Positions 4,155-38,349 of a DNA stretch of 46,041 nucleotides are shown in pieces. Numbering within the stretch: position 1 is the first letter of the stretch; the number at the start of each line of letters is the position of its first letter. The DNA lies in assembly GCA_016198165.1 (NCBI GenBank), contig JACQJF010000039.1:1-46041 (forward strand), given 5' to 3'. The position numbers were made by a program, and so were the translations under genes. The notes below the pieces were generated by a model. It was not told the origin of the DNA. It saw only the letters and a program-made list of their open reading frames with translations, and ran no database searches. This DNA is from Candidatus Iainarchaeum sp. Lineage in GTDB: Archaea; Iainarchaeota; Iainarchaeia; Iainarchaeales; GW2011-AR10.

Positions 4155-4250
4155 TATAGCAAAGAGCATAAATATTTGAACTTTATAATTGCTCTTTGCA
4201 TAATAGCAAACTGCACCAAAAATGTTCAAAAATATAAGCAGTTTGCTATA
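4155..4250. repeat. double-hairpin repeat, copy A (96 nt)
   Basis: Hairpin 1 is gcaaagagca/tgctctttgc (10 bp) with a loop containing TTTGAAC. Hairpin 2 is atagcaaactgc/gcagtttgctat (12 bp) with a loop containing GTTCAAA. The outer ends are tatagca...tgctata. It is the reverse complement of 15746..15842 apart from a 1-nt indel. Confidence 0.85.
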
Positions 4251-4279: not shown

Positions 4280-4816
4280 TCAGCGGCGCAAATGCCTGCG
4301 CTTTCTTGTGGCAATATTTATATTTCCAGACCACGTTCTGGAAATTTTTTCCGGTAGTTCTGGGGCTGGGGTTTTGCGGTTCCTGCCAAAGTGCCTCCGC
4401 GGGTATTCCCTCATTTTTTCGGCAAGGCTAAGCATTTCCGGGCTTTGATCATACCTTCTTATCCTGAACCCTTTTTTTCTTGCCATGCCTATGAGCCTGT
4501 AAGTCATTTTTGTCGCAATGCCCTGCCTTCGCAAGTTGCCCTCCACGACGTGTGTCATAGTTGTAACGATTAATTTTATTTGAGGGTGTTCAGAGTACGA
4601 GATTACTGCAACCGGTTTTGTGCCCAAAAACCCGAGCAAAAACTTGGCTCCTTGTTCCGCATCTTTTTTTATGCCATCAATTAGGTTTTGGAGGTGCCCT
4701 GCTGATGCTTCTGGAGTGTAGCCTTCTGCATAGGCTATTTTTCTTGCCTGTTCGTCTGTTATGCTTCCCTCGGCTACCTGGTAATGCAGGCTGATTCTTT
4801 TTTTCCCCGGCTCCAT
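4280..4816 (-). CDS. GNAT-family N-acetyltransferase
   Basis: Start taken at MEPGKKRISL (ATG 4816), 1 nt after the stop of the upstream 68-aa ORF. The acetyl-CoA motif region is VVEGNLRRQGIATKMTYRLIGMARKKGF. The Arg-rich C-terminal tail looks atypical. Confidence 0.7.
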   Translation of the reverse strand: MEPGKKRISLHYQVAEGSITDEQARKIAYAEGYTPEASAGHLQNLIDGIKKDAEQGAKFLLGFLGTKPVAVISYSEHPQIKLIVTTMTHVVEGNLRRQGIATKMTYRLIGMARKKGFRIRRYDQSPEMLSLAEKMREYPRRHFGRNRKTPAPELPEKISRTWSGNINIATRKRRHLRR

Positions 4817-5133: not shown

Positions 5134-6681
5134 TTAGTTGAATGTAAGGTTAAAGCTTTTTGACTCTTCCACGCGCAGTGGCGCGATTTTCCGTGGGTTG
5201 TCAAAGGTTGCAGTCACGGAGCAAATCATCACGCTTCCGCTGTCGATGCTTGAGGGGGCCTGGATGATGTAGTTGACCTGCTTTGTTTCCCTGGGGTCGA
5301 CCTGGGCAATGAACGAATCGCCTATGATGACCCATGGGGCTGGTTCGTCGCTGCATTCCACAGAAAGCGACAGGTTCTGTATCACGAGGCTGCCGGTGTT
5401 TCGCAGTGTGAGCGTGCCGGCTTTTGTCTGGTAGGAGCCCGTGTCGTCGTCAAACTGTATTGTCTGGTTCGACAGGCCTGAAAGCTCTATGCTTGTCGAG
5501 CTTTTTGACGCAACCAGGTCAAGCTCTTTCGCGATTTCGAAAAAAGATGTTTTAAAGACAATCTGGCCGCCGATGTTTTCAGTGCCTGCACCCGGCGGGA
5601 AATTTATTTCCCCGACAGGCACCGTGACGCGTATCCCTATTTCCTGTGAAGCTCCTGCACGAATCTCCGGTATGGGGACTTCCCTTGAGAAAGTGAACCA
5701 GTTTCCGACGTCTTCTATGCTCGAGTATTGCACGTCGTTGATTGCAATCACTATGTCGAGGTTCTCGATGTCAAGGGCTGTCTGGTTTCGGATGGTGAAC
5801 CTTTTTTCGACAAGCGCGGAGCCCTCCTCGATTGTCCCGAAGTTGGTTGTCCCGCTGATTGTGACTTTTCTCTGGTCGAATGAAAGCAGGTCAAACGAAA
5901 CTGTTTTTTTCGCACCCGCACTGTTGAGGCCCTTTACCCTGATTGTGCCTAAAAGCCCGCTTTTTATCTCCGAGTTTGACAGGTCTGTTTTGACCTGGAG
6001 AGTCACGGGCACTGTTTTCTGCCCCGGCGGCACGCTGACAGGCTTTTCGTACGACGCGGTCATTATTTTTTCGCCAAGGCTTCCCTCAAACACGAGTTCG
6101 ATTTCCTCTGTGGACTGTGAATCGTTTTTCAAGAGGACGTTCACGGTTTCAATCTGGCCAAGCACGAGTTTCTCCGGGAACTGTTCCTCAAGCGACAACT
6201 CAACGTCCAGGTTTTTTTCCAGTATTGCCGTGATTTCCGCATTGTCGGCTACTTCAAACGCTGTCTTTGCCGGGGTCTTGTACCCGCCTGCAATTACTGA
6301 ATAATGATACGCGCCTTTCCTGAGGCTTGTTTTTCCCCCGCTTTCAACCGTTGCAATCGTTTTCCCGTCGGCTCCGAGTATTTTCACCGAAGCGCCACTC
6401 ACTTCGATGCCCTCGGTGTCATTGACAATGAAAGTGATTTCTTTCACGCTTCCAATGAAAAAATCGTAGAGCAGAAACAGTGCAAGCAGGCCAATGACAG
6501 CTATCGCGATTTTTTTCTTGTGCGCCTTTAACACGTCGAGGATTTTGAGGCCTGTTTCTTTGGCCTTGTCAAGGGGGCTGTCCTCATAGACGCCTTCCAT
6601 TTCATCCCCGCTTGAAGGGGAGTCATATTTGCCGGATTCTTCAGGCTTGTCGTACAAAAAAAACCACGCTTTTGATTGCAT
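5134..6681 (-). CDS. type-II-anchored surface protein with CarboxypepD_reg-like and repeated Ig/CARDB-like beta domains
   Basis: TM helix IAIAVIGLLALFLLYDFFIG is followed by ITFIVNDTEGIEVSGASVKILGADGKT...YHYSVIAGGYK and then several beta-rich modules. Start chosen at ATG 6681 (MQSKAWFF) because TTTTTATTATT lies about 20-28 nt upstream. The tracked ORF extends to 6771, so the start is uncertain. Confidence 0.6.
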   Translation of the reverse strand: MQSKAWFFLYDKPEESGKYDSPSSGDEMEGVYEDSPLDKAKETGLKILDVLKAHKKKIAIAVIGLLALFLLYDFFIGSVKEITFIVNDTEGIEVSGASVKILGADGKTIATVESGGKTSLRKGAYHYSVIAGGYKTPAKTAFEVADNAEITAILEKNLDVELSLEEQFPEKLVLGQIETVNVLLKNDSQSTEEIELVFEGSLGEKIMTASYEKPVSVPPGQKTVPVTLQVKTDLSNSEIKSGLLGTIRVKGLNSAGAKKTVSFDLLSFDQRKVTISGTTNFGTIEEGSALVEKRFTIRNQTALDIENLDIVIAINDVQYSSIEDVGNWFTFSREVPIPEIRAGASQEIGIRVTVPVGEINFPPGAGTENIGGQIVFKTSFFEIAKELDLVASKSSTSIELSGLSNQTIQFDDDTGSYQTKAGTLTLRNTGSLVIQNLSLSVECSDEPAPWVIIGDSFIAQVDPRETKQVNYIIQAPSSIDSGSVMICSVTATFDNPRKIAPLRVEESKSFNLTFN

Positions 6682-9637: not shown

Positions 9638-12600
9638 ATGAAGAGATTATTGCTGGTTTTTTCACTGTTTTTATTTTTCGGCCTGACTTCAGTGGCCCAG
9701 AACTCCTGCACTTACGAAAATTACTGGTATTGTTACTCGCAGGGCGAGTGCACGGGCGTTGGGCGCAACTGGTGCAGCACTTATTGTTCCTCAAGCGAGT
9801 GCCCCACTTGTTCTTCCCAAACCCCTTGGAATTGTTATGACCAGCCTTCGTGCACTGGTGCGGGCGGTTACTGGTGCAACAATTATTGCCAGTCTCAAGC
9901 ATGCCAGACTTGTTCATCACAATACCCTTCTTACTGCACTACTGAAGCAACCTGTACTTCTGCAGGCCTTTACTGGTGCAACGGATACTGCCAAAGTTCC
10001 TCGTGTGGCGGTGGAGGAGGTGGTTACTGTGGTGACGGCACGTGTAACAACAGTGAAACTTCCGGTTCGTGCCCTTCAGACTGCGGGGGAAACACATGCA
10101 GGGTAGGCTATTCTGGTTATTGTTACACTCAAGCAGATTGCACAGGCATAGGTGCCAATTGGTGCGGCAGTTGGTGTACAACCGGCAGCTGTCCCACTTG
10201 TTCTTCCCAAATGCCGGGTAATTGCAGCACGCAGTCTACTTGCACGGGGGCAGGCGCCAACTGGTGCCAGGGCGGCTCGGATTATCACTATTGCACTTCG
10301 AGTGTGTGCCCTGTCTGCTCAAGGGAATCTACGGGAAATTGTTATACCGAGGCTCAATGCACCACTGCGGGAGCCAATTGGTGCAGTGCGGGTAATAATG
10401 GCTGGTGCACTACGTCTTCGTGCCCCGTTTGTTCTTCTTCAACCCTGGGAAATTGTTATGACTCTGCCGCGTGCACCAATGCCGGTGCTTACTGGTGCAC
10501 TTCAAGCGGTGGTGGCGGTGGCTGGTGCAATAGTTCCCAGTGCCCGACCTGCAATTCCTCGAACCTGAGTTACTGCAGCACGCAGACTGACTGCACGACC
10601 GCGGGCGGCGCGTGGTGCAACGGGTATTGCTCGTACTCGTGCGGTGGCGGGGGGTACAACTACACATGCAGTTCGAACAACCCAAGCTATTGTTACTCTG
10701 AATCAGAATGCAGCACTGTTGGCGCACAGTGGTGCAAGTCAAGCGGTGGTGGCAGTGGCTGGTGCTCTTTTTCATGCCCTACTTGTTCTTCTTCGTCTGT
10801 CTGGAACTGTTATGATTCTTCTTCATGCAGTGGTGCCGGCGGCAACTGGTGCGGTTCCGGCAACAGTGCCTGGTGCAGCAGTTCTGCCTGTCCCGTTTGT
10901 TCTTCAGGCAACTATTGGAACTGTTATGACCAGGGTTCATGCACTACTGCCGGTGCACAGTGGTGCACGTCTTCTGCTGGCGGCAGTGGCTGGTGTTCAA
11001 ACTCGTGCCCTGTGTGCTCCAAGGATTCGGCGTGGAACTGTTATACCCAGGGCGAGTGCAGCACTGCGGGTGCACAGTGGTGCACAAGCGGTTATGGCTC
11101 CGGTTGGTGCTCGACTTCCTGCCCGGTCTGCTCCTCTTCTTCAACCTACAATTGTTACACTGAATCGGAATGCACTACAGCAGGCGCAGAGTGGTGCGGC
11201 ACTTACTGTTCCTCGTCATGCCCGGTTTGCAACAAGGAGCAGCCCTGGAGCTGTTACAACAAGGACGCCTGCACGGGAGCGGGGGCGCAGTGGTGCGGCA
11301 CTTATTGTTCATCCAGCTGCCCGACTTGTGCAAACTCCCAGTTGTGGAATTGCTATGACGAGTCCTCGTGCACTGGTGCAAGCGGGAGCTGGTGCGAGTC
11401 ACAAAGCATGTCCAGTTATTCTTATTCTTCGGGTTGGTGTTCATCTTCCTGCCCGACCTGCTCTTCTTCAAGCGCGTGGAATTGTTATGACGAGTCCTCG
11501 TGCACTGGTGCGAGCGGCAACTGGTGCAAGTCAGGCGGCGGCTATGGCTGGTGCTCGACTTCCTCGTGCCCTGTCTGCAGCAAGGACCAGACGTGGAGCT
11601 GCTACACCAAGTCAGACTGTACGACTGCGGGGGCCAATTGGTGCGGTTCGGAGGCAAGCGGGTGGTGCTCGACTTCCCAGTGCCCGACATGTTCTTCAAG
11701 CAATTACTGGAACTGTTATGATGACTCCTCCTGTACAAGTGCGGGTGCGAAGTGGTGCCAGACAAGCAGCGGCTCTGGGGTTTCTGGCGGCAGTTCGGGT
11801 TATTGTTCTTCAAACTGCCCCACGTGTTCTTCTTCCAGCACGTGGAATTGTTTTTCCGAGTCAACCTGCAAGGCGGCTTCCGCCAATTGGTGCACGGGCA
11901 AAGGCGGTTACGGGTGGTGCTCCACCTATAACTGCCCGTCATGCGGCAAGTCAAGCCCCGGCAACTGCTCCACGCAGGGCCAGTGCACGGGCGCGGGCCT
12001 TGAATGGTGCGATTCAGGCAGCGGTTCGGGCTGGTGCAGCACGTCCTGCCCCAAGTGCTCTTTGGAGAAACCGGGCAATTGCCTTAACCAGTCAAGCTGC
12101 ACAAGCGCGGGTGCAGAGTGGTGCGGCTCGTATTGTGTCGCGGACTCGTGCCCGTCATGTGACCTTTCAAGCCCCTGGAACTGCGTGACCGAGAGCACGT
12201 GCGCCGGCGCGGGGGGAAAATGGTGCTCTGACGCAAGCGGTGAAGGCTCTTTTTGCGGAACTTCCTGCAAAGTGTGCGAGGTTTCAAACCTCGCCAACTG
12301 CCTCTCAGAAGACTCGTGCGTGAATGTCGGGGGCAATTGGTGCGGTTCCTGGTGCAGTGACACTGCATGCCCATTGTGCGACCCGGATAAGCCCGAGAGC
12401 TGCCAGACAAAAGTCGACTGCGAAGCGGTTGGCGCCAAGTGGTGTGCGTCAAAAGACGGGGCTTTTTACTGCAGTGAAACCTGCCCAGTGTGCAATGAAA
12501 GCGAGTTGTACAATTGCTCTGACCAGGCTACCTGCAACAGCGTTGGCGGAGATTGGTGCGGTTCATATTGTTCAACAGAATGCCAGGTGTGCTCTGACGA

Positions 12601-15301
12601 GTCCCCGTGGAGCTGCCTCTCGCAGGGAGATTGTGATGCCTCCGGCGGCGAGTGGTGCGGAAGCCAGGCAGAGGGCTGGTGTTCCGAGTCATGCACGGAA
12701 TGCACCGCCGATGACTTTGCAAGCTGTGCCACCCAGTCAGAGTGCCTTGAAAGCACTGGCCAGTGGTGCGTTGACCCGGCAACAGGGACAAGTTATTGCG
12801 CAGCTTCATGCGGTGCATGTTCAATTGAAACCCCGTGGAACTGCCTTGGCTCCGCCGACTGCGGGGCGACAGGCGGGACCTGGTGCGGTTCTTATTGCTC
12901 GGCAGGTTCCTGCAGTGAATGCAAACAAGACCACCCGTGGAACTGCGCAAGCTTTAGTTCATGCGAGGAAATAGGCGCGAATTGGTGCCTGCCACAGGGA
13001 AGCGGGTATGGCTACTGCTCCGGCGAAGAATGCTCCAAGTGTTCCACTCAAACGCCATGGCTTTGCCTTGACGAGACAAGCTGTGTTGAAAACAGCGCCA
13101 ATTGGTGCGGAACCTACTGTTCAACCGGTTCCTGCCCTGTGTGTGACCAGCAAACACTTTCCAATTGCTTTACCAAGGAATCCTGCCAGGAAACGGGCGG
13201 CGATTGGTGCGTTTCAGCCACCGCAAACAACGGCTGGTGCTCGAATTCCTGCCCTGTGTGCGACAAGGATTCCCCGTGGAACTGTTACTCTGAACAGGAG
13301 TGCCTCGGGGCAAACGCGCAATGGTGCGCAAGCAGCGGCAGTTCAAGCGCCCAAAACACTTCTTATTACGCCGGTTCCTCCTATTGTTCCAATTCTTGCC
13401 CGACCTGTTCAACCGAAACCGCTTGGAATTGCGGCGACAAGGACTCGTGCCTCTCAAACGGCGGCAACTGGTGCGGGAATTACTGCTCCACTTCTTCGTG
13501 CCCGATTTGTTCTCCCGACTCGCAGTGGTACTGTTACACGGAGCAGGCCTGCCAAACGGCAGGCGGCAATTGGTGCAACTCGCACTGCTCCTCAAGCACA
13601 TGCCCGGTTTGCACAGGCGAAGACCCGTGGAGTTGTTACAGCCAGGAATCCTGCACAGAAGCAGGAGCCCAGTGGTGCGGAACCTATTGTTCTACAAACT
13701 GCCCTTCGTGCAGCAATGATTCCTCGTGGAATTGCTCCACGAAAGAAACCTGCCTTGGCGTCGGCGCCAATTGGTGCGCCACTTATTGTTCCACCCAGGC
13801 GTGCCCCCAGTGCACAGGCGAAAACCCCTGGGCATGCACGGACGAAGAAACCTGCGGTGGTGTGAGTGGCAATTGGTGCCAACCCACTTGGGAGGGAGGG
13901 AAAGGATGGTGCACGGATTACTCGTGCCCCGCTCCGCAATTGTACGCGGTGTGCGGTGACGCGGCATGTGAAAGCGGCCTTGGCGAAAACAGCCTTAACT
14001 GCTCCAGGGATTGTGAAGCACAGCCGCCAGTGACTGCTTCCCTTGACTGCCGTGACGTGCTTGACGAGGCAACAGGCTTCACCAGGACAGAGTGCACAGG
14101 CGGGCCAGTTGAAGAGCACGTGTGCTTTGAAGAACCCCAAGGAGTGCTTGATACTTGTTTGTCTGTAGGTGGAATACCGGAAAACCTGGTTGACGAGTTC
14201 GGCTGCCCACTCACAAACTGCGTCCTGCCTGGTGCGACAGAGGAGATTTTCCTTGAAAAAGAATGCCTGCCACAAGAACAGGTAGACTTGTTTGTTTCCG
14301 AGTGTGAAAAAAACGGGTTAAAACCGGTGGTTGAGGCGGGCATTGACGGGTGCTTTGAACCGCGCTGTGAAGGGCATGAAGAGACGCTCACAGAGTCATG
14401 CAGGCAATACACGCCGGAAGAAATAAGCGAGGCGGAAAACAATTGCGCAGTGCAGTTAGGTGCCCTGGATTACAGGTTTAACGAGAACGGCTGCAAGGAA
14501 CCTATGTGTGTCACGCTTAACGAGAACCTGTGCTACCAGGTTCCAGAGGGGGCAAAGAAGCTCTGTGCGGCAGACGGCGGGGAAATGGTTGAAGTAAGGG
14601 ACGAGGCAGGGTGTGTGACTTACTCATACTGCCTGGGCAGTGCAGGCAGTGACTTTGAATTCGAGCCTGTGAAACAACTGCCCTCGCGCGAAGAAATAGA
14701 CGCAGTGATTGACGAGCTTGCAGGGCTCCAGGCGGCAATAGAAGTAGTCGCGGAAAAACTCGGCACCCTGAAGACATTTTTCGAATCCGCGTCAGACACC
14801 ACTAACATGCACAAGGTTGAAGTCGCAAAATCAATGCTTGAAGGCTCTGCGGAATCCCTCCGGGAAATGAGGGAGTTTTTGTTCCAGAATTCCTCATCCG
14901 TCACGGTTGAAGAACTCTCGGGATTCAGGGCGGAACTTGGGAACATAAGCAAGTCGCTTGAAAAAGCCCTCGGAGTCCTACTCGGGGCATTTGGCACTGG
15001 CACTGCGGAGGAAAACAATTGCGGCTCGAACATGGATTGCCTCCAGGATAACTTGTCGACCTGCACGCCATCAACCGCGACCCTGTTTGACACTGGAGTA
15101 ACTTTCAACGTTTCAATCGAAGGCATTGAAGGGCAAAGATGCTCCATGAACGTTGACGCGGTTGTGGATAACGAGCCATTGTCAATGGCCTGCAGGTATG
15201 CCGGGTATGCCAACGGCGCCCTGGGCGGAGAGGACACGGAAGGCTTTTTGGATTCATGTGAAGGCACTCTTTTGGAGTACATGCTCTTGAAGGTAGAGTG
15301 A
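9638..15301 (+). CDS. giant secreted cysteine-rich tandem-repeat protein (1887 aa)
   Basis: Sec signal MKRLLLVFSLFLFFGLTSVAQ, then about 36-38 modules of 33-49 aa with the pattern C-P-x-C-x7-C-x5-C-x7-(W)C-x3..17-(W/Y)C. These are followed by four 4-Cys modules, a helical Cys-free stretch and a terminal Cys-containing domain. It is the only frame with a coherent repeat architecture. Confidence 0.85.
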   Translation: MKRLLLVFSLFLFFGLTSVAQNSCTYENYWYCYSQGECTGVGRNWCSTYCSSSECPTCSSQTPWNCYDQPSCTGAGGYWCNNYCQSQACQTCSSQYPSYCTTEATCTSAGLYWCNGYCQSSSCGGGGGGYCGDGTCNNSETSGSCPSDCGGNTCRVGYSGYCYTQADCTGIGANWCGSWCTTGSCPTCSSQMPGNCSTQSTCTGAGANWCQGGSDYHYCTSSVCPVCSRESTGNCYTEAQCTTAGANWCSAGNNGWCTTSSCPVCSSSTLGNCYDSAACTNAGAYWCTSSGGGGGWCNSSQCPTCNSSNLSYCSTQTDCTTAGGAWCNGYCSYSCGGGGYNYTCSSNNPSYCYSESECSTVGAQWCKSSGGGSGWCSFSCPTCSSSSVWNCYDSSSCSGAGGNWCGSGNSAWCSSSACPVCSSGNYWNCYDQGSCTTAGAQWCTSSAGGSGWCSNSCPVCSKDSAWNCYTQGECSTAGAQWCTSGYGSGWCSTSCPVCSSSSTYNCYTESECTTAGAEWCGTYCSSSCPVCNKEQPWSCYNKDACTGAGAQWCGTYCSSSCPTCANSQLWNCYDESSCTGASGSWCESQSMSSYSYSSGWCSSSCPTCSSSSAWNCYDESSCTGASGNWCKSGGGYGWCSTSSCPVCSKDQTWSCYTKSDCTTAGANWCGSEASGWCSTSQCPTCSSSNYWNCYDDSSCTSAGAKWCQTSSGSGVSGGSSGYCSSNCPTCSSSSTWNCFSESTCKAASANWCTGKGGYGWCSTYNCPSCGKSSPGNCSTQGQCTGAGLEWCDSGSGSGWCSTSCPKCSLEKPGNCLNQSSCTSAGAEWCGSYCVADSCPSCDLSSPWNCVTESTCAGAGGKWCSDASGEGSFCGTSCKVCEVSNLANCLSEDSCVNVGGNWCGSWCSDTACPLCDPDKPESCQTKVDCEAVGAKWCASKDGAFYCSETCPVCNESELYNCSDQATCNSVGGDWCGSYCSTECQVCSDESPWSCLSQGDCDASGGEWCGSQAEGWCSESCTECTADDFASCATQSECLESTGQWCVDPATGTSYCAASCGACSIETPWNCLGSADCGATGGTWCGSYCSAGSCSECKQDHPWNCASFSSCEEIGANWCLPQGSGYGYCSGEECSKCSTQTPWLCLDETSCVENSANWCGTYCSTGSCPVCDQQTLSNCFTKESCQETGGDWCVSATANNGWCSNSCPVCDKDSPWNCYSEQECLGANAQWCASSGSSSAQNTSYYAGSSYCSNSCPTCSTETAWNCGDKDSCLSNGGNWCGNYCSTSSCPICSPDSQWYCYTEQACQTAGGNWCNSHCSSSTCPVCTGEDPWSCYSQESCTEAGAQWCGTYCSTNCPSCSNDSSWNCSTKETCLGVGANWCATYCSTQACPQCTGENPWACTDEETCGGVSGNWCQPTWEGGKGWCTDYSCPAPQLYAVCGDAACESGLGENSLNCSRDCEAQPPVTASLDCRDVLDEATGFTRTECTGGPVEEHVCFEEPQGVLDTCLSVGGIPENLVDEFGCPLTNCVLPGATEEIFLEKECLPQEQVDLFVSECEKNGLKPVVEAGIDGCFEPRCEGHEETLTESCRQYTPEEISEAENNCAVQLGALDYRFNENGCKEPMCVTLNENLCYQVPEGAKKLCAADGGEMVEVRDEAGCVTYSYCLGSAGSDFEFEPVKQLPSREEIDAVIDELAGLQAAIEVVAEKLGTLKTFFESASDTTNMHKVEVAKSMLEGSAESLREMREFLFQNSSSVTVEELSGFRAELGNISKSLEKALGVLLGAFGTGTAEENNCGSNMDCLQDNLSTCTPSTATLFDTGVTFNVSIEGIEGQRCSMNVDAVVDNEPLSMACRYAGYANGALGGEDTEGFLDSCEGTLLEYMLLKVE
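9707..13925 (+). repeat. in-frame tandem array of ~100-150-nt coding repeats
   Basis: The codon series TGCCC(N)(N)(N)NTG(C/T)... recurs, encoding CPxCS...WNCY...C..AGa.WC...GWCS.S. Neighbouring units can be near-identical over about 45 nt (for example 11351-11400 vs 11484-11533). Confidence 0.8.
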
Positions 15302-15745: not shown

Positions 15746-15842
15746 TATAGCAAACTGCTTATATTTTTGAACATTTTTGGTGCAGTTTGCTATTTATGCA
15801 AAGAGCAATTATAAAGTTCAAATATTTATGCTCTTTGCTATA
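15746..15842. repeat. double-hairpin repeat, copy B (97 nt; inverted relative to copy A)
   Basis: It is the reverse complement of 4155..4250 with one extra t (gctatttatgc vs gctattatgc). It lies between convergent gene ends, 37 nt after direct-repeat copy 1. Confidence 0.85.
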
Positions 15843-33137: not shown

Positions 33138-34508
33138 TTAGCCGCTCCAGGTAATCTTGCAGCAGACCGCGTAAACAACTCCTGACCCCAGGTTTTGCAA
33201 TTCTCCCGCCCATCTGTTATTCGGCATATCTGGGTAACTGTCGCGCAGAATGCCTGCGTCTGAGTTAACTCCCCCGCCTGTGACCTTGTATCCAGTTCCT
33301 AGAGTGTCACAGTCTGCATATCCCTGACTTCCATTGTTGATGCTTGTTTGTACTGATGAGCAACTCAGTCCTGCTGTTGAGCAACCCCACTCGCCAGTTG
33401 CTTGTTTTCTTAGTACCTGGTCGTTACTGCATACTTCTGAATTTGGCACTATGTCTCCGTCAAACTGTAAGCCCCCTGTTTTCACGAAGGAACTGGCATA
33501 GAGTTGCGTGCATGTACCATCTATCGTGCAGTTTTTCCAAATAGAACTTATAGGATATTTACGCATGCCAACCCCAGTGGCAAGAGCAACTTGGTCACTT
33601 TGGCTCGGCGTGCCGCCCTGAGTTAACTTGCTGACGTCCAAATACAAATTTACCGCGCCTTCATCATCGCCTCCCGTAAGACCACTTAAATCGGAAGTGT
33701 TAACGGCAGTAATATCGCCGCCCCCGCCGCCGCCAGGAATTGTGCATGTTGTGTTGGGGTTACTATCTATGCAAGTCACACCATCGCCCGTGAATCTTAG
33801 AATTGCACGCTTTGTGAGTTGTAGGCTCTCATCTTGGATTCGGTCGTAACCTACTCCATCCCCTGTGGCGTTTACCAGAAAATCAATTGTGTCAGTTGAA
33901 GAGTTTCCTGTTATTGTGAGACTGCCATCTACTGAAGTCAGGTTCAGCGTGTCGCTTGAAGAATCAGCCTGTGGGTCTGAACCGCTTGGCGTGTCGATTG
34001 TCACAAAGCTGTTCCCGCCCCCGCCGCCGACGTCATCGGGTTCGCAGGCATCAACTCGGCCTGTGTTTAAGTTTAGTACTCTTATGGATGAGCCTTCTGC
34101 ACAGGAGTAGACTCCTCCACCTCCGCCGCTGTTGTCGTTTGCGCAGATCCATGCGCCGCCAGTGAATTTGAGAATTTGGTCATCGCCACAGTTTGAAATA
34201 AGCGAAAGTGTCACGTCCCCCTCATCTTTACCTCCCTCAAGACCGCTTCCTCCAGGGGTTCTAACTGCCGTGATGTCTCCTAACCCGCCGCCCTCGCCAC
34301 CGAAAAAGCCTTCATCTATTGCTTTCTGGAGTGTCATTTTTTCCCCATCGCTGTCTGGCACTTTTACATCTAATTCGTCCGCAGAGTGCCCGAAACTTTC
34401 TGGGTCTCCAGTTAAACCAGTAAAATCCCTGTTATATGCTCCAGTGAAACTGATAAACGAAACCACTGCAAGAAAAAATGCTATTCCAATCAAAACGACT
34501 TTGTTCAT
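33138..34508 (-). CDS. secreted/anchored fibre-like surface protein, paralog Y2
   Basis: N-terminal anchor MNKVVLIGIAFFLAVVSFISF. It shares blocks with Y1 (LSLISNCGDDQILKFTGGAWICAND, NSFVTIDTPSGSDPQADSSSDTLNL), Gly5-6 runs and Cys pairs. Confidence 0.7.
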   Translation of the reverse strand: MNKVVLIGIAFFLAVVSFISFTGAYNRDFTGLTGDPESFGHSADELDVKVPDSDGEKMTLQKAIDEGFFGGEGGGLGDITAVRTPGGSGLEGGKDEGDVTLSLISNCGDDQILKFTGGAWICANDNSGGGGGVYSCAEGSSIRVLNLNTGRVDACEPDDVGGGGGNSFVTIDTPSGSDPQADSSSDTLNLTSVDGSLTITGNSSTDTIDFLVNATGDGVGYDRIQDESLQLTKRAILRFTGDGVTCIDSNPNTTCTIPGGGGGGDITAVNTSDLSGLTGGDDEGAVNLYLDVSKLTQGGTPSQSDQVALATGVGMRKYPISSIWKNCTIDGTCTQLYASSFVKTGGLQFDGDIVPNSEVCSNDQVLRKQATGEWGCSTAGLSCSSVQTSINNGSQGYADCDTLGTGYKVTGGGVNSDAGILRDSYPDMPNNRWAGELQNLGSGVVYAVCCKITWSG

Positions 34509-34673: not shown

Positions 34674-36065
34674 CTATAGAATACAAATTACCGCGCACGA
34701 AGCGTTTTGAATGGTGATTGTCCAATTGGTTGGAGTGTCACCAGGCGTTCCATTAAGATCGCAAGCTGGCTTGGCAATTCCGCTTGCTTCATTTACTGTT
34801 TTTAAGAAACAGACCCGGGCATCAAAACCAAGATCAAATGTGTCAGAAAAGCCTGTGTGTGTTTTGGTATACGTGCCATAACTTAAATCCAATTTAACGG
34901 TGGTAACCGCGTAGTTTTCGATTTTTCCAGTAGTAATCGCGCCGTCACCAATATCATCCTTGGTAATCGTATTATTAAAGATTTTAATACTGGTAACCGC
35001 GCCAGAATCAATATTCCACGTGCTACCACTGTTTGAAACAGTAATATCTCCCTTATCGCCGTCGGTCACGCCGCCTGGCATGTCCACGCAGTCCCAGTCG
35101 TCATCTCCATCTTTTTGGAGTATTTGCTCATCAGTACACTCTGTTCCATCCGGTTTTATTTCCCCGTGAAACGTAAAATCTGATGGAATGACGTTATTTC
35201 CAACTTGAAAGTTTTCTGTGGTGTATATTAAGTCGCCATTTAAGTTTTCAAATTTTGTAGTATCAACCTTGGTACTGGCGAACAAGTTTGTGCAATTTCC
35301 AGGACTTGTGCAGTCCGGCCCCCCGTCATCCGTTTCACAGGTCACGGTTCCATCCTGGTTGATTACCCTTATCGAGTTGCCTGCAGCACAGTTTCCCGTT
35401 ACCCTTTGCTGTGTTGCAGTGGGGTTAAGGCTGAAAGTTATCTGGTCACTTGCAGAGTCTCCGGTAATTGTCAGACCGTTTGTTATTCCTGCGACAATCA
35501 GTTTCAGCGTGTCGCTTGAAGAATCAGCCACTGGGTCTGAACCGCTTGGCGTGTCGATTGTCACAAAGCTGTTTCCGCCCCCGCCGCCGCCAGTGTCATC
35601 TGGTTCGCAGTATTGTACTCGGCCGTCTTTAATGTGTCCGATTGAAGAGCCAGGTGCGCAGTAATACTCATTGTTTCCTCCTCCTCCTTGCTCGTCGTCG
35701 GCACAAATCCATGCGCTGCCATTGAATTTGAGAATTTGGTTAAGGTTACAACCAGAAATAAGGGAAATTTTGCCTGTGCCTGTTATTGGGTTTGGCTCAA
35801 GCCAAACTCCGCCCAAAGGGCCTTCTTCAATTTCAGTGACGGTTCCGCTCCCTTCGAAGTCACCTTCGTTAATCGCTTGCTGAAGCGTCTTGAGGGTGTT
35901 ATTTATAAAAATGTTTGTTTCGTCCCCAGAATGCCCCATTATTTCTTTTGTCTTAGTTGTATCTTGTAAGTTATCTGGAAAATCCGGGTTATACGCGTTT
36001 GTAAAGCTGACAAAAGAAACCGCTGCAATCAAAAAAACTATTCCAATCAAAACGACCTTGTTCAT
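34674..36065 (-). CDS. secreted/anchored fibre-like surface protein, paralog Y1
   Basis: N-terminal anchor MNKVVLIGIVFLIAAVSFVSF, ISLISGCNLNQILKFNGSAWICADD, QRVTGNCAAGNSIRVINQDGTVTCETDD, and tail-fibre-like ITKDDIGDGAITTGKIENYAVTTVKL. Its ATG overlaps the stop of gene X (ATGA). Confidence 0.7.
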   Translation of the reverse strand: MNKVVLIGIVFLIAAVSFVSFTNAYNPDFPDNLQDTTKTKEIMGHSGDETNIFINNTLKTLQQAINEGDFEGSGTVTEIEEGPLGGVWLEPNPITGTGKISLISGCNLNQILKFNGSAWICADDEQGGGGNNEYYCAPGSSIGHIKDGRVQYCEPDDTGGGGGGNSFVTIDTPSGSDPVADSSSDTLKLIVAGITNGLTITGDSASDQITFSLNPTATQQRVTGNCAAGNSIRVINQDGTVTCETDDGGPDCTSPGNCTNLFASTKVDTTKFENLNGDLIYTTENFQVGNNVIPSDFTFHGEIKPDGTECTDEQILQKDGDDDWDCVDMPGGVTDGDKGDITVSNSGSTWNIDSGAVTSIKIFNNTITKDDIGDGAITTGKIENYAVTTVKLDLSYGTYTKTHTGFSDTFDLGFDARVCFLKTVNEASGIAKPACDLNGTPGDTPTNWTITIQNASCAVICIL

Positions 36066-37294: not shown

Positions 37295-37383
37295 GGGCCC
37301 GTAGCTTAGCCTGGTGGAGCATCCGACTGATAATGTTTAGAGCGGTGATCGGAAGGTCCTCTGTTCAAATCAGAGCGGGCCCA
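37295..37383 (+). tRNA. tRNA-Ile (anticodon GAT) with a 15-nt intron at the canonical 37/38 position
   Basis: Hand fold: acceptor GGGCCCG/CGGGCCC, D stem GCTT/GAGC, anticodon stem TCCGA/TCGGA, loop CTGATA[intron ATGTTTAGAGCGGTG]A, variable AGGTC, T arm CTCTG-TTCAAAT-CAGAG, discriminator A. No CCA is encoded. Confidence 0.85.
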
Positions 37384-37431
37384 CTTTCTTTTTACACCAA
37401 GTTTTACACTTGGGTTTTTGGGATCCCTTGC

Positions 37432-37524
37432 TATAGCAGGCGACATTAATTTTTGAACACTTATTGTCGCCTGATAGATAGCAAATGACCTTATTTTGTT
37501 CAAACGTTTTTGTCATTTGCTATA
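37432..37524. repeat. double-hairpin repeat, diverged copy C (93 nt)
   Basis: It has the same architecture as copies A and B. Hairpin 1 is caggcgaca/tgtcgcctg (9 bp, loop with TTTGAAC). Hairpin 2 is atagcaaatgac/gtcatttgctat (12 bp, loop with GTTCAAA). The ends are tatagca...tgctata. It lies 48 nt after the tRNA, between convergent gene ends. Confidence 0.8.
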
Positions 37525-37563: not shown

Positions 37564-38349
37564 TCAGTATTCTTTTTTCACTAAAAACCGGTCCCGGATT
37601 TTCAGGCTTATAAAGTCAATTGCAAGGACAGCCAAAAAAACCACTAAGAGGAGCGAAAAAACCTTGTCGTATTCGAGAAATCTCAGGTAAGCGCTGATGT
37701 AAAAGCCGATTCCACCGGCGCCCACAAAACCGATTATTGTTGATGCCCGTACGTTGTATTCGAACATGAATAAAAGCTGGCTTAAAAGGCTGTTTGCGGC
37801 TTCCGGAATGACTACAAAGCGGACAAGCTGGAGCTTTTTTGCTCCCACGGCATGGATTGCTTCAAGCACGTCGGGATTTATCCCCTCGATTGCCTCGTAC
37901 TGGAGCTTTGCAAGGTACCCGACAGTGTAAAACGCTATTGCAAGAACCCCTGCAAAATTCCCGAAACCCACGACTATGACGAAAATTATCGCCCACAAGA
38001 GGGACGGGATTGTCCTTACCGCGGCAAGAAAAAAACGGGTGACGGTAAACACCTGTTTGGGGGAAAGGTTTCGTGCGCTTAACACTGCCAGGGGAAAAGA
38101 GACAATCGCCCCAAAAACCGTTCCGACAAAGGCTATCTGGATTGTCTCAACCAATGAAATTAACCCCACTTCCATGACACTTGTATCCGGCGGGATGGAA
38201 TCAGAAACGAGGATAACCAGGTTTGGAAAGCCTTCAATCAACCTGAAAACATTGATTCCAAGAGAGTTAACCGAGTATGCAAAAAAAACAATTGCAAATA
38301 AAAAAAACAAAAAATGAATATTTTTTTCTTTTAACAAGGGAGGGTTCAT
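37564..38349 (-). CDS. phnE: phosphonate ABC transporter permease
   Basis: 261 aa and about 6 TM. It has the PhnE-type EAIEGINPDVLEAIHAVGAKKLQLVRFVVIPEA loop and is last in the D-C-E gene order. Confidence 0.85.
   Translation of the reverse strand: MNPPLLKEKNIHFLFFLFAIVFFAYSVNSLGINVFRLIEGFPNLVILVSDSIPPDTSVMEVGLISLVETIQIAFVGTVFGAIVSFPLAVLSARNLSPKQVFTVTRFFLAAVRTIPSLLWAIIFVIVVGFGNFAGVLAIAFYTVGYLAKLQYEAIEGINPDVLEAIHAVGAKKLQLVRFVVIPEAANSLLSQLLFMFEYNVRASTIIGFVGAGGIGFYISAYLRFLEYDKVFSLLLVVFLAVLAIDFISLKIRDRFLVKKEY

Follow-up and report, generated by a model that had tools for sequence, protein, structure and literature searches.

A probable IS630-derived MITE family with a double fold-back architecture in DPANN archaea

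Three copies of a short non-coding element that folds into two hairpins lie in a 46,041-nucleotide stretch of Candidatus Iainarchaeum sp. DNA, referred to below as the window. We conclude that the element is very probably a non-autonomous MITE of IS630-family (IS630/Tc1/mariner) origin, presumably mobilised in trans, because what had been described separately as "conserved ends" and "loop motifs" are two parts of one IS630-type repeat. Any particular role for the hairpins is proposed with low confidence.

Results

Three window copies have a common two-hairpin layout

We read the three copies directly in the window, where they occur at a density of 3 in 46 kb. The features needed below are as follows; bit scores of the copies refer to our covariance model R1, and TIR stands for terminal inverted repeat.

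4155..4250 (+): MITE copy A, 96 bp, AAGAGCA/ACTGC subfamily; TIRs at 4155-4181 and 4224-4250; 110 bits
15746..15842: MITE copy B, 97 bp; TIRs at 15746-15772 and 15816-15842; 102 bits
37432..37524: MITE copy C, 93 bp, GGCGACA/ATGAC subfamily; 98.7 bits; core TAGCA...TGCTA with TA on either side at 37432-37433 and 37523-37524
37432..37458 (+): left TIR of copy C, TATAGCAGGCGACATTAATTTTTGAAC, which includes the hairpin 1 5′ arm and TTTGAAC
37498..37524 (−): right TIR of copy C, reading TATAGCAAATGACAAAAACGTTTGAAC on the minus strand
37465..37473 (+): hairpin 1 inner arm of copy C, TGTCGCCTG, which pairs with 37437-37445, CAGGCGACA
37478..37489 (+): hairpin 2 inner arm of copy C, ATAGCAAATGAC, which pairs with 37512-37523
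37295..37384 (+): tRNA gene (Rfam tRNA, 55 bits), context outside the element
37564-38349 (−): phnE-like permease gene, whose 3′ end faces copy C

The layout that the earlier note had proposed was borne out. In all three copies, hairpin 1 consists of TATAGCA(AA), a variable stem, a TTTGAAC loop, the complementary stem and TTTGC(T)ATA, and hairpin 2 of ATAGCAAA, a variable stem, a GTTCAAA loop, the complementary stem and TTTGCTATA, so that TTTGAAC or GTTCAAA is located in the loop of six of the six hairpins. Copy B is the reverse complement of copy A, save for one 1-nt indel. Copy C differs from copy A in the stems. Its hairpin 1 has GCAGGCGACA/TGTCGCCTG-A where copy A has GCAAAGAGCA/TGCTCTTTGC, with five consecutive pairs swapped and the terminal G-C pair gone, and its hairpin 2 has AAATGAC/GTCATTT where copy A has AAACTGC/GCAGTTT, with three pairs swapped. 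Thus, all eight stem differences are compensated and only the terminal pair of hairpin 1 is lost, exactly as the earlier note had it. As single-stranded DNA, either strand of copies A, B and C folds into two hairpins, with z scores of −5.3 to −7.6. A search for TTTGAAC-N(10-40)-GTTCAAA, in which the gap allowed is smaller than the spacing in copies A and B, gave one match in the window, copy C, against 0.07 expected by chance.

The element is dispersed among DPANN archaea

Scanning a genome collection with a stem-agnostic pattern gave 20 loci (numbered L below), all of them in MAGs given as DPANN archaeal; the hosts are Woesearchaeota, Nanoarchaeota, Iainarchaeum (including the complete GW2011_AR10), Micrarchaeota and one MAG labelled Thaumarchaeota. 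Covariance model R1 added further copies, clustered in L001 and L015, and a metagenome scan with the outer 27 nt alone returned at least 120 loci, about 20 of the 120 matches listed being chance matches in coding DNA, which were removed. Element length ranges from 93 to 105 bp. GW2011_AR10 has at least 17 exact repeat matches dispersed over the chromosome, and many of the contigs from Hainich groundwater stop inside the element, as expected of a high-copy repeat.

Several stem types coexist in one genome, with two subfamilies in the window and at least three in GW2011_AR10. The GW2011_AR10 copies in L015 and L019 match copy C at 95% identity, and outside the element these two loci have no nucleotide similarity to the window; copies A and B are about 80% identical to another GW2011_AR10 subfamily. 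Copy C belongs to a separate subfamily, with its nearest kin in GW2011_AR10, and did not arise by divergence from copies A and B.

Of the units that we counted, 97 were doubles whose partner was canonical and 27 were doubles whose partner was degenerate; the other 7 were solo hairpins. One hairpin type was found with differing partner hairpins, and in L114 (985-1094) the second unit is flipped, such that its TTTGAAC-type motif lies on the same strand as that of the first, in a head-to-tail rather than head-to-head arrangement. Partner exchange and the flipped unit hint at modularity.

Some loci hold more than one element. Two complete MITEs abut in L079 (5412-5601), with one TA in common, and small palindromic repeats are nested in or beside the MITE in L110 (405-569), L109, L077/L135, L103, L113, L039 and L057/L059. 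One nested repeat has the ends TGTCAAGAACCA...TGGTTCTTGACA; another kind consists of paired short GC-containing hairpins with 4-nt loops, such as GCAAAAGCGAGGCTTTTGC. These nested repeats appear to be further MITE-like families targeting one another. Clustering and nesting of MITEs are known in bacteria (PMC10969869), and a Woesearchaea genome is among those with the highest archaeal MITE densities in a census, at 105 per Mb (PMC11602168).

Stem pairing is maintained across dozens of variants

Scans of related genomes, which the earlier note had proposed as a check, yielded more copies, and their covariation proved to be far above that of shuffled data. Alignment A2, drawn from DPANN archaeal genomes and metagenomes, comprised 79 distinct copies, none of them from the window. 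Under the two-hairpin model 93.8% of the cells are paired, versus 33-42% when the partners are slid; double-change cells number 275, versus 68±7 after shuffling; and the covariation score is 0.436 versus 0.131, a value matched in none of 500 shuffles. RNAalifold, run on the 20 loci, found compensatory double changes in 12 of 20 pairs, with lineages differing in their stems while complementarity is kept. The structural observation of the earlier note was upheld, with complementarity of the stems far above chance in dozens of variants, for which the decay of a dead repeat is no explanation.

We also considered a competing fold, in which the left half pairs with the right half (TTTGAAC:GTTCAAA). 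It scored 0.117 versus 0.105, which amounts to conservation without covariation, and its variable 5-nt positions are mostly unpaired. The variable 5-mers occur in 32 distinct combinations in 71 copies, and they are complementary inside the hairpin in 85% of cases but identical between the halves of one element in only 48%. Folding within each half is favoured over pairing between the halves because the variable 5 nt are unlike in the two.

Within subfamilies the inner arms differ at 0.05 per site and are as conserved as the outer arms, whereas the inner loop segments differ at 0.19-0.21 per site, about four times the value of the inner arms. The outer part of each loop has a fixed geometry, and its inner side varies in length and sequence: 4-9 unconstrained nt are followed by the first ~12-14 nt of the repeat itself, inverted, such that each half has a potential 10-13-bp stem with the inner repeat motif in the loop. 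The inner arms are frequently without the exact terminal TGCTA followed by TA (for example, TTTGCATA and CCTGATAGA).

Strong covariation in both stems and stable folding of either strand would suit a structured non-coding RNA or an RNA-level cis element (a bidirectional terminator, a stabiliser or a small RNA), whose UUUGAAC/GUUCAAA loops might kiss; two of the three window copies also lie between converging 3′ ends, and hairpins formed by MITE transcripts are known to influence mRNA processing (PMC10969869). We nevertheless consider an RNA function very improbable, and the folded RNA of the earlier note found no support. The tRNA is the sole match in the window above an Rfam gathering score, and the best Rfam E-values in the element, 0.17 and 0.81, are far below gathering scores. 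G·U accounts for 26 of 1735 cells in the 79 copies, versus 108 other non-pairs, so there is no wobble enrichment. The two strands score within ~10-25 bits of each other under model R1, and copies occur in all orientations and contexts, including directly 5′ of start codons. The loop heptamers do not vary, let alone covary, and are accounted for as a transposase repeat in common with an insertion sequence (see below), and near-identical copies with unrelated flanks are unlike the evolution of an RNA gene.

Copies have the signature of mobile DNA

Copies A and B are near-identical, mutually inverted and set in unrelated flanks, and the same holds within other genomes, such as those of L001 and L006. 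Since the flanks of copy B are unrelated to those of copy A, what was copied is the element and nothing more. Within subfamilies, the flanks have a diversity of 0.70-0.78, where random sequence gives ~0.75, versus 0.02-0.08 for the repeats. The element is thus small, non-coding and multi-copy, with exact boundaries at unrelated sites, as a MITE should be. In nearly all MITE copies, as in the insertion sequence (IS) copies described below, TAGCA...TGCTA has a TA directly at either end; a few copies have a TA that is displaced by one base or mutated (AATAGC...).

We looked for empty sites. A flank-joining BLAST over all loci gave filled alleles only. L022, a syntenic relative whose threonine-dehydrogenase-like neighbour is 90% identical to that of the window, is without copy A, and no copy occurs in 16 kb of it. 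Its 5286-5351 segment is a 66-nt spacer only, from which both the GNAT-like ORF (window 4280-4800, −) and copy A are absent, and we rejected L022 as a clean empty site for copy A because the adjacent ORF is missing as well; the GNAT-like gene and copy A may have arrived together or successively. The phnE neighbour of copy C has no close relatives (top match, 59-64% identity), so that no empty-site comparison was available there, and exact-protein look-ups with the window genes by copies B and C returned nothing beyond a 2.7-kb fragment of the same organism. Two scans of viral contigs gave no matches.

The ends match those of an IS630-family insertion sequence

Each end of the MITE consists of TATAGCAAA, exactly 8 nt and ATWTTTGAAC, 27 bp in all, with a geometry that is fixed in every copy. 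A fixed outer geometry with a variable inner side of the loop reads as the signature of a terminal inverted repeat. In the metagenome loci L138 and L142, which carry the same element, the 27-mer at one end recurs 1.1 kb away in inverted and slightly diverged form; the IS so delimited runs from TATAGCAAAAGACATATATATTTGAAC to GTTCAAATACTTAGGTCTTTAACTATA, with TA outside both ends. Its interior holds two overlapping ORFs that meet at an A8 run (L138 612-619) and match NCBIfam NF033545 "IS630 family transposase" at model positions 2-133 (86 bits) and 139-293 (91 bits), as well as Pfam HTH_33/HTH_23 and DDE_3.

A search with the fused protein found nine homologues, all of the N-terminal ORF and on contigs of ~1.1 kb. 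The three contigs that we fetched (L145, L146 and L147) have the same repeat 16-20 nt 5′ of the transposase start, a match that is independent of the DNA pattern, since protein similarity alone led to these contigs. The contig from Hainich groundwater, L146, holds a complete IS of 1093 bp with the ends TATAGCTAATGATTTATATACTGGAAC and TATAGCTAATGATTTAAGTATTTGAAC and TA flanks; in L145 and L147 the repeat reads TATAGCGAATrATTTATATATTTGAAC. The terminal repeats of the MITE thus match an autonomous IS630-family element in L138/L142, L145, L146 and L147, and copy C has the same fixed spacing as the IS ends in L138, L145, L146 and L147. In the parent IS there is no fold-back; the 27-bp repeat runs directly into the transposase start.

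In every copy seen, a conserved poly-A run, which in L147 is an A9 ahead of the DDE part, divides the transposase into two ORFs. This suggests a programmed frameshift rather than decay. A tblastn search for the transposase in the window and in ~890 kb of MITE-bearing loci found none besides those of L138/L142 and L145-L147.

The IS link changes what the loops are. The earlier note had regarded TTTGAAC and GTTCAAA as candidate contact sites on a folded RNA or single-stranded DNA, and they turn out to be one part of the 27-bp TIR, TATAGCAAA-N8-ATWTTTGAAC, that bounds a DDE-type IS. It likewise argues against the HUH/Y1 transposase that had been put forward as a candidate, given that the ends match a 1.1-kb IS630-family (DDE) IS with TA flanks. 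An element of the REP/REPIN or IS200/IS605 type, mobilised as single-stranded DNA by a hairpin-recognising HUH/Y1 transposase, would be in keeping with two imperfect inverted palindromes, which resemble REP doublets (REPINs/BIMEs), and its DNA hairpin would suit strictly Watson-Crick covariation on both strands. It is extremely improbable here. The ends are those of a DDE and not of an HUH element, and a GTAG/CGTC tag is missing from the hairpin foot in the alignment. The IS200/IS605 elements make no duplication, whereas TA is present at both ends of ours, and their end hairpins have the same orientation on one strand, whereas ours are mirror images. No Y1 transposase was evident either in the tblastn search of the window and all loci, for which the query was the IS630 transposase and which matched IS copies only.

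Other candidates were dropped, as they fit poorly and the IS link explains the motifs. For attC-like sites, RYYYAAC/GTTRRRY does not fit TTTGAAC; replication-origin boxes, C/D or H/ACA guide RNAs and a tRNA T-arm mimic (GTTCAAA) misfit in motifs, loop sizes or copy pattern.

Genomic surroundings of the copies

Copy A is located between the 3′ end of the GNAT-like ORF and the start of the threonine-dehydrogenase-like gene, and copy B between converging gene ends. Copy C begins 48 nt past the tRNA, between converging gene ends, a position that we confirmed. No systematic association with tRNAs was found in the 20 other loci, and the tRNA neighbour of copy C is incidental, since the other copies do not adjoin tRNAs. 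Converging, tandem and diverging intergenic contexts all occur across the loci.

The tRNA gene itself is 90 nt long, with the anticodon loop CTGATAA and a ~15-nt intron 3′ of the anticodon; in our own reading it is probably an archaeal intron-bearing tRNA-Ile(GAU), and we judged the ARAGORN call of Tyr(ata), obtained with bacterial settings, to be a mis-call. On its 3′ side are a small hairpin and a T-run (37397-37413, then GTTTTTGGG), which may be the tRNA terminator.

Several copies end 17-30 nt 5′ of start codons. In GW2011_AR10 L015 (2700-3540) there are three elements, each ending ~18 nt before a start codon; both genes of a diverging pair are included, and one of the three elements is degenerate with an internal duplication. 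The outward ends of the element, ...TTTGCTATA(TA), are TATA-like. As a side effect of insertion, in the manner of Correia elements, the MITE might thus replace or supply archaeal promoters.

This proximity to start codons, three times at ~18 nt in L015, and the TATA-like outward end would also be expected of a host cis-regulatory module, that is, a promoter or an operator for a dimeric transcription factor, in which half-sites co-evolving with the protein would produce apparent covariation. We regard such a module as very improbable, because about one-third of the copies (B and C of the window among them) are flanked by converging 3′ ends and have no gene start nearby, and because several stem types per genome, together with the unlike halves, would need multiple factors per site. 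The unrelated flanks, the exact boundaries and the identity of the ends to IS ends also speak against it.

Two further features of the window caught our attention. A single ORF of 1887 aa at 9638-15301 (+) contains dozens of diverged Cys-rich repeats of ~33-39 aa each, with the pattern C-P-x-C-S...W-N-C-Y...C...AGA-x-W-C, and dominates the direct-repeat output; the L022 contig ends within a homologue, and the L023 counterpart has 1866 aa. At 33138-34508 and 34674-36065 (−) are neighbouring paralogues of 456 and 463 aa, in which stretches of repeat families D17 and D19, 82-96% identical in nucleotides, recur at a spacing of ~1560 bp, indicating a probable recent tandem duplication.

Discussion

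The new MITE family that we have described in DPANN archaea is very probably IS630-derived, and its double fold-back architecture is unusual. We propose the following mechanism for its spread. The transposase, with two HTH domains and DDE_3, would be produced from two ORFs by frameshifting on the A run and would bind the 27-bp repeats as double-stranded DNA, each repeat presenting terminal TA and TAGCAAA, exactly 8 variable nt and the inner ATWTTTGAAC. It would then excise the element and insert it at a TA dinucleotide, which would be duplicated; the family hallmark and the conserved TA both point to such a duplication. The MITE would presumably be moved in trans by a transposase of this IS630 type.

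What the standard IS630/Tc1-mariner mechanism does not explain is the strong maintenance of the inner arms. No hairpin requirement is known for transposition in this superfamily. The arms would presumably be maintained by selection on the propagation of the element itself rather than on a host RNA function. Template-switch correction of quasi-palindromes is an established mechanism, and correction between the arms might contribute. We rejected the idea that the inner arms are extra or spare cleavage ends, as their terminal bases are often degenerate. The variable 5-mer is unlikely to be a determinant of transposase specificity, because it is unlike in the two halves of the same element, and recognition by a protein alone is not a good explanation for the matching of the arms. 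The strictly Watson-Crick, strand-symmetric pattern seen in all subfamilies fits a DNA hairpin or cruciform that serves the spread of the element.

A stronger form of this idea is that the fold-back arms are a required cis feature, with the transposase acting on cruciforms or transient single-stranded DNA hairpins, or that each ~47-nt hairpin is a minimal mobile module that recombines, flips and re-pairs. The data are compatible with such a dependence on structure because the inner arms, though absent from the parent IS, are conserved like the repeats, and because of the strict Watson-Crick covariation on both strands, the exchange of partners and the flip in L114; we hold it to be rather unlikely all the same. 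If it is true, there would be a structure-dependent form of IS630/Tc1-mariner transposition, a process otherwise believed to read double-stranded repeats only.

Several known systems invite comparison. RUP of Streptococcus pneumoniae is attributed to IS630-Spn1, and SM1 of Sulfolobus solfataricus to ISC1048. Like RUP, ERIC/MITEEc1 and SM1, the DPANN element belongs to a class of ~80-130 bp, AT-rich, intergenic, multi-copy and non-coding sequences with stable folding, TIRs that match an IS630-family IS and TA at both flanks. Unlike in these elements, its interior is neither a leftover of the IS nor one long palindrome but consists of two separate stem-loops, whose stems covary over ~30 subfamilies, and its hosts are DPANN archaea. 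ERIC is listed as MITEEc1_IS630 (PMC11602168), and SM1-SM4 are archaeal MITEs (PMC10969869).

With Stowaway MITEs and Tc1/mariner elements it has in common the transposase superfamily, small size, the potential for DNA secondary structure and, probably, TA target duplication, but in the eukaryotic Stowaway the hairpin forms between the two ends of the element, whereas here one forms within each end. The Correia element of Neisseria is similar in its ~100-150 bp, 26-bp repeats, frequent location just 5′ of genes and, probably, TA duplication; it can supply promoters, and its transcripts fold and are processed (PMC10969869). It differs in being bacterial and in having no established parent IS, a single hairpin over the whole element and an IHF site. 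REP/REPIN-RAYT and IS200/IS605 systems also have inverted pairs of imperfect palindromes in which stems outweigh loops, but our element lacks a GTAG-type tag and has the ends of a DDE element and TA flanks.

A conspicuous, covarying "structured element" is thereby explained as selfish DNA, which guards against the annotation of such sequences as RNA genes or riboregulators in DPANN genomes. The MITE family defined here is widespread in MAGs of Woesearchaeota, Nanoarchaeota, Iainarchaeota and Micrarchaeota, its parent IS630-type element has been identified, and the search pattern and covariance model can be used for masking these assembly-breaking repeats. Near-identical copies in different DPANN genomes suggest that mobile DNA is exchanged among these symbionts. 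The puzzle that the family poses is why a fold-back arm is kept at each end of a cut-and-paste DDE element; if the arms are important for transposition, a very well studied transposon superfamily would gain a structural requirement.
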